From Octopus sinensis (Eukaryota): a DNA stretch of 64,000 nucleotides. Made by a program: the position numbers and the translations under genes. This document shows, piece by piece, positions 5,180 to 58,790 of the stretch; positions within the stretch are counted from its first letter, which is position 1, and every line of letters starts with the position of its first letter. Under the pieces are notes generated by a model. It searched no databases. It was not told the origin of the DNA and worked only from the letters and a program-made list of their open reading frames with translations. The DNA is taken from NCBI RefSeq assembly GCF_006345805.1, contig NC_042998.1:42718001-42782000 (forward strand), given 5' to 3'.

Positions 5180-5689
5180 ATGCTTCAGAAATTCACCTCA
5201 CTGTCTATGAAACCATTTTTGAAAAAAGTTCCCATATCTTCGGCCATTAATTGTTGTTCATATTCAGTATTTAAGTCTTTACAAAGAACCCCCAGAAAGC
5301 TTTTAGAAACAAATTTAGCCAATTTTTATTCGAGGCATTTGTCATATTTATCTGAAGAATATTTCTCAAGTTATTCAAATGCTTTCTTTAGAAGATGCTT
5401 TCCAAAAAGCTCCAGTGGTTTCAGGGCATCTCGTTTATTTTGTAATCAAATAGTTAATAGGTGTAAGATTGATGATAGAATAAAATCACATCCATTTACC
5501 TCAGATGTAGGGAATTCTTCAGTTAAAAAGCTGAATAATGTTAAACTGTTTCATCTGAAATCTCGGGGCCTAATTCAGCTTGCTGGCACAGATACTTCTA
5601 GTTTTCTACAAGGCCTTATTACAAATGATATGGAGCAGTTTCAGACAGACAATAAAAGAACAATGTATGCCATGATTTTGAATGTTCAG
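5180..5689 (+). CDS. IBA57: IBA57/CAF17 coding exon 1 (probable mitochondrial targeting region plus start of the GcvT-like domain)
   Basis: Long polypyrimidine tract ending ...tctttctAG|ATG at 5180. Translation ends ...SRGLIQLAGTDTSSFLQGLITNDM...YAMILNVQ, typical of the YgfZ/IBA57 N-terminal domain. Donor CAG|GTAAGA at 5689/5690, phase 0. Confidence 0.93.
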
Positions 5690-8700: not shown

Positions 8701-8829
8701 GGCCGCATTCTCTATGACATTTTCATCTATGCTCTTCCTAACCAATCTTCAGCTTTCTTCCTGGAATGTGATACCAGTATTATTAATGATGTAACAAAAC
8801 TCCTAAAGAGATACAAAATTAGGAAAAAG
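8701..8829 (+). CDS. IBA57: IBA57 coding exon 2
   Basis: Acceptor attttcAG|; reads GRILYDIFIYALPNQSSAFFLECDTSIINDVTKLLKRYKIRKK, continuing LNVQ-GR..D and the YKIRKK family motif. Donor AAG|GTATGT. 129 nt, phase 0-0. Not in the ORF track in this frame. Confidence 0.93.
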
Positions 8830-9274: not shown

Positions 9275-9465
9275 CTTAGAAATTTTCATTGTTTCTTGAT
9301 TAGTGAAATTTGCAGTCTCGCATGCAATTAAAACTAGTTCTGTATCTTCTTTTAAATATGGTACTTCCTTGTCTGTATGTGCACATGCATGCATATGTGT
9401 GTGCATGTGCTTCATATGTGTGTGCATGCATTTGTGTAAGTGTGCATGTAAAGATTAGTGAAATT

Positions 9466-9897
9466 TGTATGGCTCTGAAACATGGAGAGCCACCTGCAGC
9501 AACTACAAGATGATCCAGACCTTCATCAACAAATGTCTCCGGCAGATCCTCCATCCGAAGTGGTTCGACAGAGTGCCAAACACAGACCTGTGGGAAAGGG
9601 CCAACTAGGAGCCCATGCATGTTCAGATTAGATGAAGGAAATGGAGATGGATCAGACACACACTGCGGAAAGAACCTTCAAATGTGATACAACAAGCACT
9701 TGACTGGAACCCGCAGGGGAAAGGGAAGCAAGGACGCCTGAAGCAGACATGGAAGCAAAGCATTTTGGACGAGCTCAGGACCACCGGCCTGACATGGGAA
9801 ACAGCCAAGAAACACGCCAATGACTGCAAAAAGCGGAAAACAACTGTTGAGGCCCTATGCTCCACAAGAGGCAAAAAGGATTAATAAGAAGAAGAAG
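9466..9897 (+). mobile_element. 3' end of an RTE-clade LINE (degenerate)
   Basis: Translates LYGSETWR...FINKCLRQIL..KW.D...N.DLWE...RKWRWIRHTLRK...QALDWNPQGKGKQGRLKQTW with internal stops, then a TAA/GAA repeat tail. Confidence 0.9.
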
Positions 9898-11499: not shown

Positions 11500-11671
11500 G
11501 TTTCTATTGAAAATACTGAAGACAAATTTCAAGTATGGGCTTCATTTAGTCCTCCTTTAGCACTTTCAAACTTATTGTCATCTGAAAAGAATTCAAAGGT
11601 TGAAATTTGTGAGCCTGATCCTAGAATTCAAGACTTTGGTTCCAGATTAATTTTACCTCATGATACTTCTT
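11500..11671 (+). CDS. IBA57: IBA57 coding exon 3
   Basis: Acceptor ttttaaaAG|; reads VSIENTEDKFQVWASF...EPDPRIQDFGSRLILPHDTS (conserved DPR....G.R). Donor T|GTAAGT. 172 nt, phase 0-1. Confidence 0.9.
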
Positions 11672-14600
11672 GTAAGTTAAACTGATAATTATTTTGTGAT
11701 ACATTTTGAAAATAGCTTAGGAATAAATAACTATTTGAGAAAAGTAAGGTAACATCTGATTTTTCTTCCAGCAATGAATGAACCATGAAAAACTGTCAGA
11801 TCACACACAATTTATATTTAGGTTCATACAGCTGTTTCTACAGCTGGATGCCCTTCCTAATGGAGTGGTTGGCTTTAGGAAGGGCATCCAGCTGTAGAAA
11901 CACTGCCAGATCAGACTGGAGCCTGGTACAGCCTCCTGGCTTCCCAGACCCCGGTCGAACCGTCCAACCCATGCTAGTATGGAAAACAGACGTTAAACAA
12001 TAATGATAATGATGATACATAATCTATATAACAGATGCAGGTGTGATTGTGTGGTTTGAAGTTTGCTCCTTAACCACATGATTTTGGGTTCAGTCCCACA
12101 GTGTGGCACTTTGGGCAAGTGTCTTTTATCTTCACCACAGGCCAACGTCCAGCTTGTGGATTTGGTAGGCAGAAACTGAAAGAAGCTTATGTATATATAT
12201 ATAGCATGGAAGGCAGACGTTAAACGATGATGATGATGATGATGATTATATTTACAAATATGTGTGCGTGTGTGCTTGTTTGTGTGTGTTACTATCTCTT
12301 TACTTTGACATTGCATGATAGTTGTCACTGTTACATAAGTGCCCTTAGTTTACAATCTTCTGAGAAATGTCTGGTCATGGGGAAATATTGCCTTACTTGG
12401 AAACAGGTGATGGTTGGTGACAGGAAGGGCATCTGCCTCAAAACGTTCTACACAACCCATGCAAGCATGGAAAAGGGGATGTTAAACAACGATGATGATG
12501 ATGATAATATTCCTACATTACTCCTTTTTACTCTTTTACTTGTTTCAGTCATTTGACTGCGGCCATGCCGGAGCACCACCTTTAGTCAAGCAAATTGACT
12601 CCCGGGACTTATTCTTTGGAAGCCTAGTACTTATTCTATCGGTCTCTTTTGCCAAACTGCTAAGTTATGGGGGACATAAACACACCACCATCGGTTGTCA
12701 AGTGATGTTGGAGGGACAAAAACAGACACACAAACACACACACACACACACACAAATATATATATATATATACACATACATATATATATATGACTGGCTT
12801 CTTTCAGTTTCCGTGTACCAAATCCACTCACAAGGCTTTGGTCGGCTTGAGGCTATCGTAGACGACACTTGCCCAAAGTGCCACGCAGTGGGAATGAACC
12901 TGGAACCATGTGGTTGGTAAGCAAGCTACTTACCACATAGCCACTCCTGCACCTATTGTTCATATCTGTTATAATTCACAACCATTTGAATACTACACCC
13001 ATCATTCATCCTCTATCACTTCTCTATTCCTTAACTGCTCTTATCATTCATCTGTCTAACACTTATGTCTCTGTTTCTCCTGCTTTTAATATTCATGCTT
13101 CTTGTGCTCATATCATACAAGCAGCATCATTCATTTCCATTTTCAATATATTGTGAGAACAAGTCTGGCCATGGGGAAATATTACCTTGCTTGAAAACAG
13201 GCAAGGATTGGTGACAGTGAGGGCATCCAGACAGAAAATCTGCCTCAATGAACTCCATCTGACCAATGCAAGCATAGCATAGTGGATGTTAACTTGATAA
13301 TGACTGACGATGGGTTTTTAATTGAGTGATAAAATCCAAAAATTAAAACCACATGGAAACTTGAAATAAATTTCATTTAATGTTGTGTTTTAAATTTAAT
13401 TTTCTTACTTAAAACATTGAAAAGCATAGTTTATTTTTCTCATTTGTATAATGTTGTAATATAAATTATGTTGTCATTGGTTACAAGTTATGTATTGTCA
13501 TTTAATGAATCACTTTGTTTAAGTACATTAACTATTATTTATCATATTTAAATAAAATCTGCTATTCTTGCCTATGGTTTTATTTCTGTTCACCTAATAA
13601 ACAGCTAAGAAATCTGGTGTTAGGATATCTTATTCTATATTCTACTCTTTTACTTGTTTCAGTCATTTGACTGTGGCCATGCTGGAGCATTGCCTTTAGT
13701 CGAGCAAATTGACCCCAGGACTTATTCTTTGTAAGCCTAGTACTTATTCTATTGGTCTCTTTTGCCAAACCGCTAAGTTACGGTGACATAAACACACCAG
13801 CATCGGTTGTCAAGTGATGTTGGGGGGACAAACACAGACACAAAAACATACACACACACACACATATATATATACATACAATGGGCTTCTTTCAGTTTCC
13901 ATCTACTAAATCCACTCACAAGGCTTTGGTCAACCCAAGGCTATAGTAGAAGACACTTGCCCAAGATGCCATGCAGTGGGACTGAACCCAGAACCATGTG
14001 GTTGGTAAACAAGCTACTTACCACACAGCCACTCCTACGCCTATAACTTTTTATTAATTGCTTTTATTCTTTAGAAGTTGGCTACAGTTGTAATACAGAT
14101 TTAAACCTATGACTTGGCTTTAATTTCCAATTAGCATCCTCACCCATGCCAGTGTCACATTAAAAGCACCTGTACAAGTGCCATGTAAAAGGCACTCAGC
14201 ACACTCTGTAAAGTGACTGGTGTTAGGAAGGGCATCCAACCATAGAAAAATAAGCCAAATCAGATCAGCACCTGGTGCTGCTCTCCTGTTTGACAGCTCT
14301 GGTCATACTGTCCAACCCATGCCACCATGGAAAATGGATGTTAAATGATGATGAAATGGTAAATTGGCAATTGGTGGTGGGTTGGCAATAAGTACTGAGT
14401 TGGCAGCAGTGAGTTGGTAATAGGTGGCAAGTTGGCATATTGACAGTGAAGTGGTAGTAGGTGAATTGGCACAGTTGTTAGAGTAATCAGACAGAATGTC
14501 TTATGTATATGTTCTGCTCCCCTGTGCTTTAAGGTCAAATCCTGCCAAGGTCTACCTTGCCTCTCTTTTTTTTTTCTTTCTTTTTTGAGTTGATCACAAA

Positions 14601-14889
14601 TGTACCAATCTATGTCAGCCAATTATCAGAATTGTAAGTAATGTTGCACTGGATGCTTTGTGTGTCCTCCTTCCTCATTGTGTTTTGCATTCAAATTCCA
14701 CCCTGGCTTATATGAGTGACAGACCTTTTCTATTACTGTCTAACACCACCACTTGGTGCCTTGGGGTCCCTTTAATAGATTCCACTCTGATGTAGGCATT
14801 TGATTTGAAAATACCTTCCTCCTTCCCTCCAGTTTCCAAGGATCTGTAAAGGGTCATAAGCACTGAACATTAATGGAATTTGTAGTTAT

Positions 14890-15222
14890 GTGGTACCAGT
14901 GCCGGTGGCACATACGAAAACCATCCGAACGTGGCCGTAGCCAGTACCGCATTGACTGGCCTCCGTGCCGGTGGCATGTAAAAAACACCATCCGAGTGTG
15001 GCTGTTCGCCAGCCTCGTCTGGCACCTGTGTCGGTGGCACATAAAATCACCCACTACACTCTCGGAGTGGTTGGCGTTAGGAAGGGCATCCAGCTGTAGA
15101 AACACTGCCAGATCTGACTGGGCCTGGTGCAGCCTTCAGGCTTCCCAGACCCCAGTTGAACCGTCCAACCCATGCTAGCATGGAAAGCGGACGTTAAACG
15201 ATGATGATGATGATGATGATGA
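14890..15222 (+). mobile_element. RTE LINE 3'UTR-type repeat (family D) with (GAT)n tail
   Basis: GGAGTGGTTGGCGTTAGGAAGGGCATCCAGCTGTAG...GGACGTTAAACGATGATG. Copies at ~11861-12016, 17985-18267, 22325-22676, 60465-60740 (+) and ~26575-26940, 32435-33360, 41150-41490, 42783-43083, 61964-62155 (-). Confidence 0.85.
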
Positions 15223-16019
15223 TCCCTCTTGACTAACAGCAAAAAAAAAAAAAAGTATATCTTTGAAATAAGATTGAACATAGTACCTTTATTTTAATGC
15301 ATACTATCAATACTTCTACTCTGCCAAAACATTTGCTCCTGAGCAGCCACCATAGAAAAATAGATATACAATAATGGATATTACAATTTTCAACCTGATG
15401 CAGTACCTTCACATCAGTCCTAATAATGTATCTGAATTTAGATTGTTATCATTTAACGTCTAATGTTTTCAAAAGGTGTTTGCTACATCTGGGTCCTTTG
15501 TTGTTGGAGGTAATTACGGCATTATCTAATTCTTGGTTTTTACTACTTCTTTTCCTAAATAAAAGCCTTTATTGTTTAACTGTCAACTGATAATGGTAGT
15601 CATCGCAACAAGTTTACAATTACTTTAGTTACACAATGGAAAATAGCAATCCTAGTTGGTGCAATGACACTGAAGCCACAACAAAGCAGAGTTGTTTAAA
15701 GAATTGTTTCTTATATGAATGCTTTATTTCTGTTGTATATTGAATGTCATCTCTGATACATAAATATATATGTCAAGAACAAATGTGAAATCAATTTTCT
15801 TTTTTTTTTAATTTTTATTTTGTTACCTCCTGTGATACCCATTTAGTGAGTCTTTCTTAATTTTCGTGTAGTGAAAATTTCAAACAATTGTGGGATGGTG
15901 AAAATTTAGTTCTCGGTTGTTTTGCATATGTCATTGTAGTAACTTGGGCTAGTGTCTTCTACTGCTCCAAGCCAATCAAGGCTTTGTGTCTGGGTTTGGC
16001 AGACAGAAACTGAAAGAAG

Positions 16020-16248
16020 TGGCGAGCTGGCAGAAACATTAGCACGCCGGATGAAATGCTTAGTGGTATTTCATCTGCTGTTACATTCTGAGTTCAAATT
16101 CCGCCGAGGTTGACTTTGCCTTTCATCCTTTCGGAGTCGATAAATTAAGTACCAGTTACGCGCTGGGGTCGATGTAATTGACTTAATCCCTTTGTCTGTC
16201 CTTGTTTGTCCCCTCTATGTTTAGCCTCTTATTGGCAATAAAGAAATA
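16020..16248 (+). mobile_element. SINE family C nested in a family A fragment
   Basis: GGCGAGCTGGCAGAA...GAGTTCAAATTCCGCCGAGG...TTTCATCCTTTCGG. TSD AGAAACTGAAAGAAG at 16005-16019 and 16249-16263. Other copies at ~4420-4637(-), 20200-20820(+, nested), 35610-35822(-), 37948-38175(-), 44489-44705(+), 52720-53080(-). Confidence 0.9.
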
Positions 16249-16349
16249 AGAAACTGAAAGAAGCCTGTCGTGTGTGTGTGCATTTGTAGACATACTTGTG
16301 TCCATGCATAAATACACATGTACATACTTGCATGTATACATATATACAT

Positions 16350-16822
16350 GTATGCATGGGGCATCAGTTTTTTTCTTTTTGGGGGAGTCATTTGTATGAA
16401 TTTAGAGAAAGATGTTTAGCTCATCAAAGAAAAGCTGTATTTGAAAACAAATCTGTAGAAATAATCTTGGGAATCATTTTATCAAACTTATGTATTGAAT
16501 CTGCCATTTGCATCAATGGCTGCTTCAATATGCAGAAGCATTGACATGCCTGAATCAGATGATCTCTATCAATATAGACAGAGCAGATTTGAGAGATTGT
16601 ATAGTGTTATGGGGGTGTTGACTGACCTCTCTCTCAACTATGCTCCATACATAATAGTCCAGTGGATTGAGGTCTGGTGAGCTAGGAGAACATGATCATG
16701 GAGATTAGTATGCACCCACTCTTGGGTTGTCCTAGCTTTATGAGACAGTGCATAGTTTTGTTGGAAGACACATAGTCTTCTGTTGCATACTCTGTCCATC
16801 CAGGGCCTCACAATTTTCTCAA
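16350..16822 (-). mobile_element. Tc1/mariner-superfamily transposase C-terminal relic
   Basis: Minus strand reads ...VFQQNYALSHKARTTQEW... then, after a frameshift, SSPDLNPLDYYVWSIVE. Confidence 0.75.
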
Positions 16823-16976
16823 GAAACAAATATAAAACTACTAGCATACATGTATAAACTGAAATGTGCATTTCAAAATGTTTTGTTACATAATAATGAT
16901 AATGTTAATTGTGGTATGTTTATGTATTGTTTTACAAGATTCTTGATGTCAAAATGTCTCTTGAAACAAATATGTT

Positions 16977-17671
16977 TATATTTGGGGATGGTTATGTTTT
17001 GCCAGGTAAACACACACACACTATTTATTTGATCTTCACTTTAGTTATATTAGTATTATTTTTTGTTTAGTTTATTTGTCTGTGAAAGTCCTTCCGTCAC
17101 ACATTTTGTGACCTCTTCAGTGACACTTTATTCCATGTGTCTCCTCTTGCCCTGCCTTTTCCATTTTTCTCTTTTGTAGTAATAAAACTAATGTGAAATA
17201 GAAATAATACATTTCTAAATATCTCAGAGAGATTTATGCAGTAGTGGTACGATAAAGGCCCTTTATAGTTTTGTAATCAGTGAATTTATTTCACTAGAAT
17301 TCCTATATGTTTACAAGAGCTAGATAGGCATCTCCAATTAGCAGGCCATGCTACTCCAGACTGATGATGAGCAAAGACTCAGAAACTAGTCTCTGGGTGC
17401 AGGCTTAGCTGAGTGAAGGTGCTAATCGCCCCCTTGTAAACATAAGGACACAGGAAATGTGTCAAGGCCGACAGGAAGCATTGCTGCTTCCTAGGGCTAA
17501 ATAGCAGTAGCATGATTCCCTTCATGAGACTCACATTAAGTTGACAGTATACAACTACTTTACCGTACCACTACTGCATAAATCTCTCTGAGATATTTAG
17601 AAATGTATTATTTCTATTCAAATAAATAGTGTGTATGTTTAATTAACAAAAGATGACCATCTCCAAATATA
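16977..17671. mobile_element. Fold-back element with nested inverted repeats enclosing a hammerhead (Penelope/retrozyme-like)
   Basis: Inner IR 17197-17257 / 17558-17618 (61 bp, 1 mismatch). Outer diverged IR ~16977-17032 / 17618-17671. Confidence 0.7.
17356..17396 (+). ncRNA. Minimal type I hammerhead ribozyme motif
   Basis: CCAGA-CTGATGA-TGAG(caaaga)CTCA-GAAA-CTAG-TC-TCTGG: perfect stem I and stem II, both catalytic boxes, palindromic ACTAGT helix III, GUC cleavage triplet at 17389-17391. Confidence 0.8.
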
Positions 17672-17804
17672 GCAATAACCGTGGTAGTTATGATCAAATT
17701 TGTATGTGCCAGTAATAGAGGCAAAGGTAAGTAAACTTTCCATAATATTCATGATGCCATCTGAAATTATTATAATTATAGTCACTTTGCATATTTCCAT
17801 ATAG

Positions 17805-17930
17805 GTGTATCAGATCCAGAAGAGGAATATCACATAAGACGATATGAAATGGGTATTGCTGAAGGAACATCCGATCTCCCTCCAGGCAGCTGCTTTCCTT
17901 TAGAAAGTAATCTGGTATTTTTAAATGGTG
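17805..17930 (+). CDS. IBA57: IBA57 coding exon 4
   Basis: Acceptor ttccatatAG|; reads (C)[41 protein letters not shown] (YH..R...G..EG..DL, PLESN). Donor G|GTAAGT. 126 nt, phase 1-1. Confidence 0.93.
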
Positions 17931-18266
17931 GTAAGTTGTATCATTTCAGTCAAAGTTTTTATTCATATACTTATATATATGGGGTGCCATGTAAAAGCAC
18001 CTGTGCTGGAACCATGCAAAGGTGCGACTGCCAGTGCCACATAAAAGCACCCGTTGTCAGTGCCATTAAAAGTGCCTGTGTTGGTGTCATGTTAAAAGCA
18101 CCCAGTATGCTCTGTAAATTGGTTGATATTAGGAAGGACATCCAGCTGAAGAGACCATGCCATAACAGACAAATGTAGCCTCGGCAGCTCTCCAGCTGGC
18201 CAGTTCCTATCAAATCGTCTAACCCATGCCAGCATGGAAAATGGACGTTAAACAACAATAATGATG

Positions 18267-18321: not shown

Positions 18322-19230
18322 CACCCAGAATCACACTAATAACTTAGGAATGAAATTTAGGATTTCTTGTTTCTCTCTCTCTCTCTCTCTCTTTTACTCT
18401 TTTACTTGTTTCAGTCATTTGACTGCGGCCATGCTGGAGCACCGCCTTTAATCAAGCAACTCGGCCCCGGGACCTATTCTTTGTAAGCCCAGTACTTATT
18501 CTATCGGTCTCTTTTGCCGAACCGCTAAGTGACGGGGACATAAACACACCAGCATCGGTTGTCAAGCAATGCTAGGGGGACAAATACAGACACACAAACA
18601 TATATATATATACGACAGGCTTCTTTCATTTTCTATCTACCAAATCCACTCACAAGGCTTTGGTCGACCCGAGGCTATAGTAGAAGACACTTGCCCAAGG
18701 TGCCATGCAGTGGGACAGAACTCGGGACCATGTGGTTGGTAAGCAAGCTACTTACCACACTGCCACTCCTGCACCTATGAATTGATTTTGATAAAACTTT
18801 TCCCAGATGGTTTGTACACTATGGAAACACCATTGTTATGTTTTCATTATTCTGTGTAACGTCCTTTCTTTTTTATTTCCTTGGTGCTCATACGGCTAAA
18901 TAATTCATTATGTCAATAAATGTTATAATATTATTATGGTTTTCTGTTAAATATATACTTAATGTATGCTTAATATGTATCATTACCCTTCATTTTCTGA
19001 AAAACAATGTCTAGATGGGTTATTTTCATTCAAAAGCTATTAGCCTGGTTCACCCAAAAACTAAAGAATCTGAAATAAAAAAAGAAAGGACTTTATGAAG
19101 AATAATAAAAACATAACAATGGTGTTGCCACAGTGTACAAACCATCTGGGAACAGTTTTATCAAAATCGATTCACAGAAAACTGAGAAATCCTAAATTTC
19201 ACTTCTGAGCTATTAGTGTGATTCTGGGTG
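18322..19230. mobile_element. Long-TIR MITE; left TIR split by a family A SINE
   Basis: CACCCAGAATCACACTAATA... at 18322 is the inverse of ...TATTAGTGTGATTCTGGGTG ending at 19230. The IR continues at ~18776-18888 / ~19072-19175. Confidence 0.8.
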
Positions 19231-19234
19231 TATA

Positions 19235-20106
19235 TACGAGGTCTGATCAATAAATATCTGGACTTTTACCATAGTAACGAAGCTAAAGCATGCAGAGTGA
19301 AGCCACTTGGCAAAGATTAACCTTGAACTCTGCTGTGCATGCGCACTAAGTTTTAACGTTCTAGCTCATTTCTGCTGTTTACTGCAGTGCTTGGAAGGAA
19401 GGTATGTAGCGTGTAATCATCGCATTGACCATGACAGAGAAAGTTGTCATGGCGATATCTACTCAGAGGCCTAACCAAAGTTGCAGAAAGTGTACAAAGA
19501 GGAATGTATGAGCTGCACACAAGTGTACGAGTGGTTCAGATATTTCCAAGATGTCCGAAAAAATGTTGATAGTGACGAATTTTCTGAGAGACCCACAACC
19601 AGCAGAACTGAGAAAAACATTGCAGCGGTGAGGGGAAATCATCGAATCACCATCTGTGAGTTATCAGAGGATGTACAGATTAGTTACGGTTCAGTTCAGT
19701 CTATTATCACTGAGAATGTGTCTGCCAAGTTTGTGTCAAAACTGCTTTCAGCTGACCAAAAAGACTCTCGGGTTTCAGTTGCACAAGATCCCCTTGATTG
19801 TGTTGAGAATGATGAAAACTTTTTGAAAACTTTGCCTAGGTCTCTGAGCAGGTATCGCCAAGCGTTTGGCAAAATTTAGTGCAGATTCTCTACTCAACTT
19901 TCTCTGTCATTGTCAATGTGGCAATCACATGCTACACACCTTCCTTCCAAGCACTGCTGTAAACAGCAGAAGTGAGCTAGAACGTTAAAACTTAGTGCGC
20001 ATGCGCAATAGTGTTCAAGGTCAATCTGTGCCAAGCAGCTTCACATCCCATGCTTTAGCTTTGTTACTAAAGCAGCAGTCCGGATACTTATTGATCAGAC
20101 TTTATA
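19235..20106. mobile_element. Mariner-derived element with two inverted 5' ends and a transposase HTH fragment
   Basis: TIR TACGAGGTCTGATCAATAA... ORF 19481-19879 resembles a mariner N-terminus (VYEWF..F, D..SERPTTSRTE.NI, RITICEL, AKFVSKLL...QK..RV). ~19826-20104 is an inverted copy of the 5' end. Confidence 0.88.
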
Positions 20107-39696: not shown

Positions 39697-41064
39697 TTGG
39701 GTCATCACACAAATAATGTGGCTTTTTTATACTTTTATTTTTCAAAATTTAGATAAACAAAGTTCTTTTTTAATCTAAAATATACTCTCCTTCATTTTCT
39801 ACAATGCTCTTCCATCTATCCAGTAGACTTGCAAGGCCCCTTCTCTAAAATTCACTTGTCCATGACAGAAAATACTCCTCCAGTACTGTTCTGATCTTGT
39901 CTACAGAATTCAAATAATTTTGAAGACTGCACAATAAATGATAATCAGATGGGGCAATATGGTGGGTAGGGCATTTTCCCATTCAAACTGCTCCAGCCTT
40001 TGGAATGTCTTCCTTGCTATTTGTGGTTGAGCATTTTCCTGATTGAAGAACACCTTTCATCTTGAAAAACCAGAGATGGTCGTTTTCTTTCTAGCATTAA
40101 CTCAATTGCACACAGTAGATTTCCTTTGTTATCATTTGGTTTGGGTTTAATAGTAACTGGTGACAAAAAAGTGTCAAGTGCCAAAGACAGTGGGCAGAGA
40201 AAAGAGAAACACTGGCATCCCAGGCTAAAGAAGGTCTTCACCCACATAAGATGTTATCTGTTTGGTGGGATATGAAAGGTTCCACTTTGAACTTTTAAAC
40301 CCAAACCAAATGATAACAAAGTGGAACCTTTCATATCCCACCAAACAGATAACATCTTATGTGGGTGAAGACCTTCTTTAGCCTGGGATGCCAGTGTTTC
40401 TCTTTTCTCTGCCCACTGTCTTTGGCACTTGACACTTTTTTGTCACCAGTTACTATTCGGTCCAAAAAAGGTTCATTTGTGAGATGTGACAGCAAAGAAG
40501 AACACACATTCACTCTCTGTGTGCGATTAGACTTGGAAAGTATGTGAGGGACCCATTGACCCAATTTGCTGACTTTCTGATGGCATGCAGGTGTTGATGA
40601 ATGGTTGAATGACCACATCTAAGCTTCTCTGCTAGTTCCTCAACAGTTACGATGGGATTTTGTTCCACCAGGGTTTGCAGGACATCCTCGTCGAGCTCTA
40701 CAGATCTTCCAGGACAAGGCTCGTCTTCTAGGCTGTAGTTTCCAGCTTGAATTTCTGGAACCACTGTTGACACTGGCTTACACTTATTGTCTGATCCCCA
40801 TATACTGCATTAATATTCCTCGCACTTTACTTTGTGTTGTTGCCTTTATTGAACTCATAAAGTAAAATATGCCGAATATGCTCCCTTGTTATTTCCAGAA
40901 AAGAACTGTTAAAATAGAACTCTTCAAAATTTTCCCTAAGAATAAGCACAAGGTAAAATTACTACCTACTTTTATAGCAAGTTGATGCAGGTAGTTTATC
41001 CCATCCCACTCTGACTTTTAGTTCATGCATTTGAAAAAAACCGCATTATTTATGGGATGACCCA

Positions 41065-54519: not shown

Positions 54520-55467
54520 ATGGATAACCTAACCATGGAAGAAGTGAACTCCGACAGCTCGTGTGATTTTGCACGTTGCTGGACTGTTGCCCTTCAGGTC
54601 ACCTTATTGGGACTAATCTCAGCTGTGGGCACATTCAGCAACTCTTTAGTCATCCTGGCTATATTTTTGTTTGATGAACTTCGAACCAAAGCAAAGTCTT
54701 TTGTATGTAATTTAGCTGTCGCTGATCTGATTTTGTGCCTCTTCGTAATTCCTCTACGTACAATGATGATGTTTGCCAGACAACCTTTTGGCTTATGTCA
54801 TGTAACGGTGGTAGCACAAGCCACCTTCGTCTATACTTCAATAAATACACTAGCTGCCATTTCATATAATCGTTTTGTATTGACGATGAAGACCAGGTCT
54901 CAGTACGAGAACACTTTTACTAAACGTAACGTGTTCCTCATTTTATCAACAGTTTGGTGTTTGGCTTTTGGTGCTTCCTTCATGGCTGTCATGTGGACTG
55001 GAGCACTTAATGTCACCTATGACAACAAGACACGTGCATGTGTGTTTTTGAGAGGAAATGCAACAATTTCAGCCCTTCTGATGGTGCCACTATCATTACT
55101 CTTTTCACCGTTGTTATTAACTCTTTATTTCTATGCCCGTATTTTTTACTATGCTCGTCACTCCGCTGTGTCAGTAACTGGCCATCGCCCAGATGACATT
55201 AGTTTCACTTACAAATTGTGTTGCATCACCATTCTTTTCGGAATTTTAAACTTCCCAGCTTGCATTTTGGCTGTAGTACAGGTATTTAGTAGTCCGGATG
55301 CAAATGAAGTTTTGATTCGTTTTTCCATCATCATCCAGCTACTTAATTCTGCTGTCAACCCAGTTATATATGGATGGAAAGTGCCAAAATTTCGAAATGC
55401 GTTTATTCGGATGTTACGTTTGAATACTTGTTTCAAAAGGGCCACAGTGCAGCCTATTAACCACTGA
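54520..55467 (+). CDS. Rhodopsin-like (class A) GPCR, single coding exon, 315 aa; resembles the melatonin receptor/Tre1/Moody/GPR84 group; orphan
   Basis: Seven hydrophobic segments: TM1 GTFSNSLV, TM2 NLAVADL, TM3 C...ISYNRF, TM4 W, ECL2 Cys (TRACVF), TM5 FYARIF, TM6 FGILNFP, TM7 NSAVNPVIYGW, helix 8 FRNAF. N-glycosylation sequons present. AATAAA at 55548 and 55679. Confidence 0.93.
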   Translation: MDNLTMEEVNSDSSCDFARCWTVALQVTLLGLISAVGTFSNSLVILAIFLFDELRTKAKSFVCNLAVADLILCLFVIPLRTMMMFARQPFGLCHVTVVAQATFVYTSINTLAAISYNRFVLTMKTRSQYENTFTKRNVFLILSTVWCLAFGASFMAVMWTGALNVTYDNKTRACVFLRGNATISALLMVPLSLLFSPLLLTLYFYARIFYYARHSAVSVTGHRPDDISFTYKLCCITILFGILNFPACILAVVQVFSSPDANEVLIRFSIIIQLLNSAVNPVIYGWKVPKFRNAFIRMLRLNTCFKRATVQPINH

Positions 55468-57349: not shown

Positions 57350-58790
57350 GGGTGTAAGCAAAACAAAGTCAGATTTCAAAATGTTTGGCTTTACAGATAT
57401 TGAAATGATGCAGGATTTAGATATATAGTTTACTGCAAACCCAACCAAACTGTGGCAGCATGGCTAAACAGATAAATGGTAGTGGTGGTGGTGGAGGAGG
57501 AGGGGGGAGGAGGTAGTGATAGTGGTGATCATTACTGATCGTAAGGATCAACATCATCATGACACTAATCATGTTCAATGGCATTGAAATCCTCTTCCAT
57601 TTCTATAAGGAATGGTACATAATATAAAAGATGCCATGCACTCAATACCAGATGATCTGCTTTGTTATTGGGCTCCTTGTCATTGATAATAAGGTCAAAA
57701 GCTTCAGTTTATCTAATAATGCATCTGACCTGATCTTTATAAACTTGTGAAATCTTTTGCATAGTCCCTACAACATGATGTAAATGTACTTGACTTAACT
57801 AATTCAAAATAGTAACCAATGGTATATTTGGTTTTCTCAGACCAATTTTCCAATCTAAATTAATCTTTTGAATGTAAAAATGCTCTTCACCATTTTCTCT
57901 TGCAATTGTTTTATACAAATATAGAAGCATTTTCTCGTTTATAATATCTTCTTGCTTTGGAACTAATTACCTGTATATGGTTTTCTTCAACATTTATTTG
58001 ACATCACAACAAACATGTGCAACATTTCAGTAACTACTAAGGTGTGCACCATCTGGATATTTTCACATTCTTTGTTAAAATAATGCAGTCATATACATTT
58101 GTGGTTTTGAAAATGTTTGTTTGATGACATAGAAGACTATTGTACATAGTATTTCCCAATCTATATGATGGGAGTTCATAAAAGAACATTGTAAATTATC
58201 AGCTACTTATAGCTTTTCTGAGCAGCAGTGTAAATTCTTTTAAATAAAGAAATAAACTATACAAATGACTATTTGCATATTATTATTGATGTTGTTGTTG
58301 TTGCTGTTGTTTAGCCTCAAGTCTGTCATAATTTAGAAGATTTATGGCAGTCATGGGCAACCTGCATCCTGTGAAGCTTTCTGAAATTACCTTGCATATT
58401 TTTTAGCAGCACAGACTGCCTGATGAGGATGAGGCATGTTTCATATAGCCCACTGCTCGAAAAAGGGATATCCATGTCAGATCTATGATCAAAAGTATCT
58501 AATCCATGATCATTCAAGCTCCCTTCTTCAGGAATGATTTATACTGGACTAAATTATTCAATGTGCCATTTTTCAAGTTAGTAAGAAAGAGGTTTGAGGG
58601 AGCATTGTCTATTTTGATAGCTAAAACAGCTTTCTAGAGGTGAACATATTGGCTCAAGAGGATTCCTCTTTCTTACTTAATGGTGGAAAAGAGGAAAAAT
58701 AAATCTGCTATATTACAGAGTCTTATGTTATAGCTTCAGGCTGACTTAAGTCTTGTGAGTAGATTTGGTAGATGGAAACTGAAAGGAGCC

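Follow-up and report, generated by a model that had tools for sequence, protein, structure and literature searches.

The usual type I hammerhead of metazoans has a helix I of 6 bp, a helix II of 4 bp and a helix III of 1-2 bp that is capped by a small palindromic loop (PMC4209133). As described there, this weak palindromic helix III impedes cleavage of the monomer, which is rescued by a second copy; a tertiary contact between loops 1 and 2, formed by U1.7 and the A that ends loop II, has also been reported (PMC11875169). The retrozymes of mussels are 350-390 bp in length (Cervera and de la Pena 2020, PMC7229834). Metazoan Penelope-like elements (PLEs) carry minimal hammerheads, in which A9 is followed by an extra base and a long helix II has a G10.1-C11.1 pair (PMC4209133). 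For PLE insertions, a truncated 5' copy in inverted orientation, which gives flanking inverted repeats, is a described trait (PMC8557442). It has been claimed that retrozymes derive from pseudo-LTRs (pLTRs), in a study that reported about 44% of the X. tropicalis copies to be intronic (bioRxiv 10.64898/2026.07.22.740005). The mechanism by which retrozymes insert is still treated as hypothetical (PMC7229834; bioRxiv 10.64898/2026.07.22.740005).

The window analysed here, a stretch of 64,000 nucleotides from Octopus sinensis, contains a canonical type I hammerhead within intron 3 of the IBA57 gene (Table 1). The locus is best explained as one solitary member of an abundant repeat family of cephalopods, with a unit of about 349 nt; it is likely a non-LTR retrozyme that Penelope-like machinery inserted into the intron, and it is predicted to be nearly silent on its own. 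We regard this explanation as probable.

Table 1. Features of the hammerhead-bearing locus and its host intron, with positions in the window.
Feature	Position	Strand	Basis or remarks
Canonical type I hammerhead	17355..17398	+	Sequence, descriptor and published geometry; predicted cut 17391/17392
Rod that extends helix I (56 pairs predicted)	17301..17448	+	Folding
One complete unit of the repeat (about 349 nt; GC 0.40), a circular permutation with respect to the cut site	17270..17617	+	Go-back joints
3' end of the unit, forming the right inner inverted arm	17558..17618	+	Arm search, family joints
Left inner arm, inverted copy of the last 61 nt of the unit	17197..17257	-	60/61 identical
Inversion junction, perfect 7+1+7 palindrome ATAAAGG-C-CCTTTAT	17252..17266		Sequence
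Repeated AT-rich tail with second hammerhead	16930..17196	-	Repeated in both DNA runs; outer left arm at 16977-17032
Second, decayed Penelope-type minimal hammerhead	17082..17124	-	CTGAAGA, extra G, 6-bp helix II closed by G-C, GGAA
Outer right arm/tail	17618..17691	+	Left-tail family minus the 164-nt part that holds the second hammerhead
IBA57 exon 3, bordering the host intron on its 5' side	11500..11671	+	GT-AG and phase join
IBA57 exon 4	17805..17930	+	PDB, E 9e-9; exact match of an X16 contig

The core of the hammerhead was read directly from the sequence as CTGATGA (17361-17367) and GAAA (17382-17385), and the positions that define a hammerhead core in PMC3088659 (C3 U4 G5 A6 N7 G8 A9, G12 A13 A14 A15 and U16 H17) were all matched. 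Helix I comprises 6 bp (17355-17360/17392-17397), including the CCAGA/TCTGG stem (17356-17360/17392-17396); its sixth pair is U-G in the window copy and U-A in 71-77% of the family depth. TGAG and CTCA (17368-17371/17378-17381) form helix II around a 6-nt loop, with a U-A closing pair, and the palindrome ACTAGT (17385-17390) supplies a helix III of 1-2 bp with a palindromic loop, followed by the GUC that ends at 17391. The core, stems, palindrome and GUC site had all been named in the original prediction, and each was found in its place. The accompanying description of the motif as minimal was wrong: the helix lengths, the unpaired U1.7 (T17398) and the A that ends loop II (A17377) are those of the canonical metazoan type I geometry, and the bases for the predicted tertiary contact are therefore present.

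A structural descriptor consisting of the hammerhead core plus three helices found a single site in the 64-kb window at each of three stringencies; the background in 300 shuffled windows was 0.003 sites per window at the strictest setting and 0.11 at the loosest. The hammerhead motif is real, and far beyond chance. The Rfam hammerhead models, which had been suggested as a check using Infernal, gave no match at the gathering score in the window, nor at E values of up to 10 in 17100-17700. Four sub-threshold Rfam matches at E values of up to 10 (two C/D snoRNAs, preQ1-II and mir-724) were rejected as chance. The absence of an Rfam match, together with an opposite strand that is almost as stable as the rod itself, could be taken to mean that a chance motif lies in an old DNA inversion. 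This idea is largely refuted already by the strictest background rate and by the membership of the motif in a repeat family whose changes fit the fold, and its probability is close to nil.

The G10.1-C11.1 pair that usually, but not obligatorily, closes helix II is absent, with U-A in its place. The caveat raised about this pair was correct as an observation; as a defect it was not sustained, because no change was seen there among the 40 listed of 174 family variants, and the U-A pair is probably a family trait rather than damage. Natural or active variants at the closing pair of helix II have been described (PMC3088659; axolotl, PMC7229834).

Contigs from four sequencing runs of 24, two of DNA (X1 and X5) and two guessed to be RNA (X12 and X16), were aligned to the locus at 80% identity; an insect-metagenome row (share 0.05) was left out of the run comparison. 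Runs of five organisms contained parts of the stretch. The aligning contigs numbered 2,850 of 17,829,103 in X1 and 3,019 of 36,192,745 in X5, mostly at 80-95% identity, and 263 and 85 in the two guessed-RNA runs, counts that indicate an abundant repeat. Depth was not converted to copy number, since the filter drops records; for the same reason, the gap in DNA-run contig cover over 17692-17950, exon 4 included, is uninformative. Exact-pattern scans for relatives returned 0 loci in metagenome contigs, viral contigs and prokaryote genomes, none of which is a cephalopod collection.

Among the joints listed (12 of 20), several led from 17611-17617 back to 17270-17304 with 1-36 letters between (17617 to 17270 in X1; 17616 to 17276 and 17611 to 17304 in X5; 17616 to 17304 in X16), and the longer fillers resembled 17267-17303. 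These joints indicate that the repeating unit of the family is about 349 nt long and arranged head to tail (or circular). Two of the listed joints, from 17559 to 17306, may represent a shorter unit variant or another inversion. In copies elsewhere, one unit followed another directly and without intervening coding sequence, and no stop-free frame of at least 90 codons was found over 17197-17618. Head-to-tail units of 150-450 bp, a criterion for retrozymes, were evident from the X1 and X5 joints at the family level only, and the GC content lies under the retrozyme limit of 45-50%. The circular fold of 17269-17617 was predicted at -112.2 kcal/mol (z = -6.2), with none of 100 shuffles as stable. 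As for RNA expression, one guessed-RNA run contained a go-back joint; because the same joint was present in the DNA runs, such joints cannot show RNA circles. The original proposal of a retrozyme- or PLE-type RNA was supported; the inverted 61-nt arms, the tandem unit and the second hammerhead had gone unnoticed in it. Exactly one unit was present in the window, and no second copy was found. With one hammerhead-bearing unit, the locus fits the "monomer" class rather than the two-unit working definition of an active element (bioRxiv 10.64898/2026.07.22.740005).

Family variation was available as unphased summaries, in which 40 of 174 variants were listed. The core, the pairs of helix II and pairs 1-5 of helix I were free of change among these 40; the other 134 could affect them. 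Twelve of them lay in the rod: six were at unpaired positions, two kept a pair as G-U, two made up one two-sided change (U17338-A17412 to C-G), one improved helix I by converting its sixth pair from U-G to U-A in the hammerhead register, and one broke a pair. Loose ends in X1 and X12 (among 24 listed of 1,069) revealed a subfamily in which the closing stem was altered on both arms and was still complementary. In these unphased data, the family variation fits the RNA fold. In both DNA runs, the summed depth over the two-hairpin part of the unit (17440-17511) was about 3-4 times that over the hammerhead part; the two-hairpin part may be common to more subfamilies, or it may be the most conserved one.

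The inner arms enclose exactly 300 nt (17258-17557), and at their single mismatch (17563) the right arm departs from 99% of the family depth in X1. Beyond them lie outer arms of 56 nt that are 82% alike. An inverted, truncated 5' copy, a trait of Penelope-like insertions, was found at the locus, and the junction palindrome is a possible snap-back scar. Mismatches were less frequent in the inner arms (1/61) than in the outer arms (10/56; Fisher p = 0.003), a difference that points to more than one event or template, or to later conversion, and that a one-event model fails to explain. In other copies the strand-switch joints lay in other places (17275/17379, 17432/17531 and 17442/17557, among 15 listed of 80).

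Inner arms of 98% complementarity that enclose exactly 300 nt, and a further pair of arms outside them, would also suit a MITE-like DNA transposon that has the 61-nt or nested 56+61-nt arms as its terminal inverted repeats and the hammerhead as cargo. Such an origin is highly improbable. The right arm of other copies runs on into the start of the unit, which makes it internal to the tandem repeat, and the inversion points vary among copies; neither fixed ends nor a target-site duplication was found, the longest shared word being 7 nt.

In the IBA57 pre-mRNA, 17197-17257 and 17558-17618 would form a near-perfect duplex of 61 bp, a possible substrate for A-to-I editing. Such editing is abundant in cephalopods. 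No excess of A>G changes was found in the guessed-RNA contigs (22 and 19 places vs 22 and 20 in DNA).

The left tail continues the left inner arm, and the right inner arm runs into the same kind of tail. The second hammerhead, which is located in the left tail, has an extra base between positions 9 and 10.1, a G10.1-C11.1 pair and a long helix II. The window copy carries GGAA and a mismatch in helix I instead of an intact GAAA and helix I. In the unphased majority of the family, the letters present at 17094 (in 91-96% of the depth) and at 17084 (in 75-77%) give both GAAA and a paired helix I; because these majority letters are the consensus, the motif is taken to have decayed in the window copy. 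The tail at 16930-17196 is likely to be the 3' end, the putative pLTR, of a Penelope-like family, a reading that fits the derivation of retrozymes proposed in bioRxiv 10.64898/2026.07.22.740005. No long frame encoding a reverse transcriptase (RT) plus GIY-YIG was found at or near the locus, and no autonomous PLE partner was identified.

The linkage of a PLE-type minimal hammerhead and tail to an inverted 5' piece, as well as the reported homology of Xenopus retrozymes to pLTRs (bioRxiv 10.64898/2026.07.22.740005), raises the alternative that 16930-17691 is the terminal region of a truncated PLE, tandem only through the partial-tandem insertion of such elements and with no circular RNA life. 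We consider this unlikely, since a canonical motif on the plus strand is at odds with the minimal ones of metazoan PLEs (PMC4209133); moreover, successive units abut without intervening coding sequence, and the predicted circle of the unit is strongly structured.

On folding, the rod reached -62.5 kcal/mol (z = -5.7), with none of 200 shuffles as stable, and was closed by a perfect 12-bp stem (17306-17317/17433-17444) plus TCCT/AGGA. This extended stem I and both of the downstream hairpins had been foreseen in the original prediction, and the folding that it had proposed as a check reproduced them; the hammerhead junction, in contrast, was absent from the minimum-energy fold. The associated argument, that G-U pairs and bulges indicate a selected RNA structure, is weak on its own, because G-U accounts for only 6 of the 56 pairs in the rod and the minus strand is nearly as stable when folded (-56.3 vs -62.5 kcal/mol).

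In all six contexts that were folded, helix I slipped and the core was buried with a probability of about 0.98, either because 17358-17363 paired with 17387-17392 or because the core paired with loop III. The open-core form was less stable in all six contexts, by 3.8 kcal/mol with helix III open and by 9.9 kcal/mol with helix III closed. Substitution of the commoner family letter at 17397 reduced the former penalty only to 3.2 kcal/mol, so the buried core is not merely damage of the window copy. The dimer hammerhead, a pseudoknot, was estimated by the sum of its parts: the opening of two monomers (+5.8 kcal/mol) and the palindrome duplex (-4.8 kcal/mol) would make dimer formation in trans about neutral energetically. 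The weak palindromic helix III is of the kind that requires a second copy, and the earlier view that the motif probably needs a dimer partner was supported.

Published cleavage data for related motifs vary. Axolotl monomers with a weak helix III were 6% and 22% cut in an hour, coral and mussel monomers cleaved fast, at 0.8 and 0.1 per min (PMC7229834), and one of nine Xenopus dimers was reported to be cut at all (bioRxiv 10.64898/2026.07.22.740005). Cleavage of the lone octopus motif is predicted to be too poor to affect the gene; since the folding models ignore tertiary contacts and Mg2+, and since the coral and mussel monomers cut well, its activity could exceed that prediction.

If the family behaves as outlined for other retrozymes in PMC7229834, tandem arrays would be transcribed, and the hammerheads of adjacent units would pair through the palindrome of helix III and release monomers; a host ligase would circularise these, and a Penelope-like RT would copy the circles into new sites. 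The window copy is one whole unit, with an intact cut site in its middle, and in front of it lies an inverted repeat of its 3' end. Because the cut site is intact mid-unit, the template would have been a ligated circle or an uncut multimer and not a cut linear monomer. A more specific scheme can be offered tentatively, as a possibility about which we are doubtful. The Penelope-like RT may have been primed on a 61-nt segment common to the retrozyme and the Penelope pLTR (compare the tails of SINEs and LINEs), gone round a ligated RNA circle exactly once and then folded back at the 15-nt palindrome, which would have produced the inverted arm; the slipped helix I of the family would act as a built-in lock, under which monomers and circles stay uncut until the palindrome is paired with a second copy. 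Within the pre-mRNA, the lone motif is predicted to fold with helix I slipped and the core buried, and a rare cut would amount to a nick in a long duplex.

The host gene on the plus strand was identified as IBA57, since exons 2 and 4 match CAF17/IBA57 chains in the PDB (E 6e-7 and 9e-9, respectively). The exons at 5180-5689, 8701-8829, 11500-11671 and 17805-17930 are connected by GT-AG joins into an open frame of 312 codons, and the last of them matches the CAF17 C-terminal Pfam domain. Exons 1 and 3 had no PDB match and were assigned on frame and phase; exon 1 also gave a weak Pfam GCV_T match (E 0.016). Intron 3 extends over 11672-17804, with the hammerhead on its sense strand and the cut site 413 nt before exon 4, in agreement with the distance of about 410 nt that had been given. 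A 1,827-nt X16 contig matched exon 4 from end to end and no further, with 0 differences, as a spliced mRNA would. Another X16 contig spanned the cut site with one difference; it represents an uncut or religated sequence, of this or of another copy.

After a cut, the two halves would still be joined by about 106 predicted pairs, and splicing of IBA57 would go on because the rare cut is a nick in a long duplex. It has been reported that splicing can tolerate a broken intron (PMC5126111) and that slow intronic ribozymes leave splicing unchanged (Fong 2009, as cited in PMC10919898). For CPEB3, 2-3 min are available over 9,931 nt (PMC10919898); scaled to 413 nt, these figures from a different animal leave 5-8 s until the 3' splice site appears. 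The insertion probably has no effect on IBA57, and control of the gene by the hammerhead is unlikely.

The contrary proposal, that an active intronic ribozyme cuts the nascent IBA57 RNA before exons 3 and 4 are joined and thereby tunes output, as proposed for CPEB3 (PMC10919898), can draw on that precedent, on the sense orientation and intact core, and on the presence of U1.7 and the loop-II A. Near-identical contigs in two organisms (17040-17223 in X1, 17017-17223 in X5 and 17357-17463 in X16), which may reflect a shared insertion, also speak in its favour. It is nevertheless very unlikely. The motif is a lone copy with a weak helix III and a buried core, the scaled interval before the 3' splice site is short, the slow ribozymes cited above were without effect on splicing, the halves would remain paired, and a sense intronic copy is expected by chance in a high-copy family. 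The earlier suggestion that the motif could cut the pre-mRNA of an Fe-S assembly gene thus holds as a possibility; as a function it gained no support, given the lone copy, the buried core, the abundant family and the spliced contig.

Several other features of the window were recorded. At 58420-58480 on the plus strand, CTGATGA...GAAA precedes a palindrome (GGATATCC) and GTC but lacks helices I and II; this candidate failed the descriptor even at the loosest setting, and is possibly a decayed hammerhead, possibly chance. Inverted arms of 100 nt (18775-18874 and 19078-19177; 90% complementary, 203 nt apart) possibly mark a MITE in the next intron. Fragments at 16600-16692 (-), 19475-19879 (+) and 40331-40809 (-) resemble what we take to be Tc1/mariner transposase, and two of the four pieces scanned gave weak Pfam helix-turn-helix matches. 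Frameshifted pieces at 9462-9881 (+) look like the C-terminus of a LINE reverse transcriptase; no Pfam match was found for the piece at 9636-9881. A single-exon, 315-aa rhodopsin-family receptor is encoded at 54520-55467 (+; PF00001, E 1e-33); its relatives are named adenosine-receptor-like, and proteins of Argonauta and Sepia fall into one cluster with it at 90%. The window also contains dispersed SINE-like repeats of 150-430 nt, which make up at least three families, all of them present in many copies.

At the family level, most of the features tested agree with a non-LTR retrozyme; the motif is real and of a known kind, and its cleavage and RNA circles are putative. It shares with the metazoan non-LTR retrozymes described in PMC7229834, especially those of mussel and the axolotl Rtz331/Rtz353, a non-coding tandem unit of about 350 nt, a low GC content, one canonical type I hammerhead per unit and a self-paired predicted circle. 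As in the axolotl HHR_Amex1, helix III consists of one pair plus a palindromic tetraloop. The window copy differs from these retrozymes in its cephalopod host and in the U-A rather than G-C pair that closes helix II. According to PMC7229834 most metazoan circles leave the core free, some mussel circles excepted, whereas the predicted octopus fold buries it. The octopus locus is also a monomer with an inverted 5' piece.

Like the Penelope-like elements (PMC4209133, PMC8557442), the locus has an inverted, truncated 5' copy that gives flanking inverted repeats, and its second motif shows the extra base after A9, the G10.1-C11.1 pair and the 6-bp helix II of PLE minimal hammerheads. In contrast to those elements, it has no RT or GIY-YIG frame, its main motif is canonical and its minimal motif is decayed. 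The solo retrozyme monomers of Xenopus (Li, Clavereau and Pollet, bioRxiv 10.64898/2026.07.22.740005) are similarly dispersed, derived from tandem families, often intronic and pLTR-related; the sample described in that study comprised 31 vertebrates, three insects and one coral, and no mollusc. The amniote intronic ribozymes (the RECK and C10orf118 hammerheads, PMC3088659; CPEB3, PMC10919898) also place a self-cleaving motif on the sense strand of an intron. They are reported to be conserved and to cut in vitro, whereas the octopus motif is one of many repeat copies and has a helix III of the dimer type.

No description of a cephalopod retrozyme was found in the literature searched, of which coverage was partial and in which the supplement of PMC7229834 may list one. 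The locus itself is ordinary, since intronic solo copies of hammerhead repeats are common; the family would extend the non-LTR retrozymes to cephalopods. Because a complete permuted monomer lies here next to both an inversion junction and a minimal hammerhead of the Penelope type, the ideas of a circular template and of a shared tail can be tested by the comparison of junctions.
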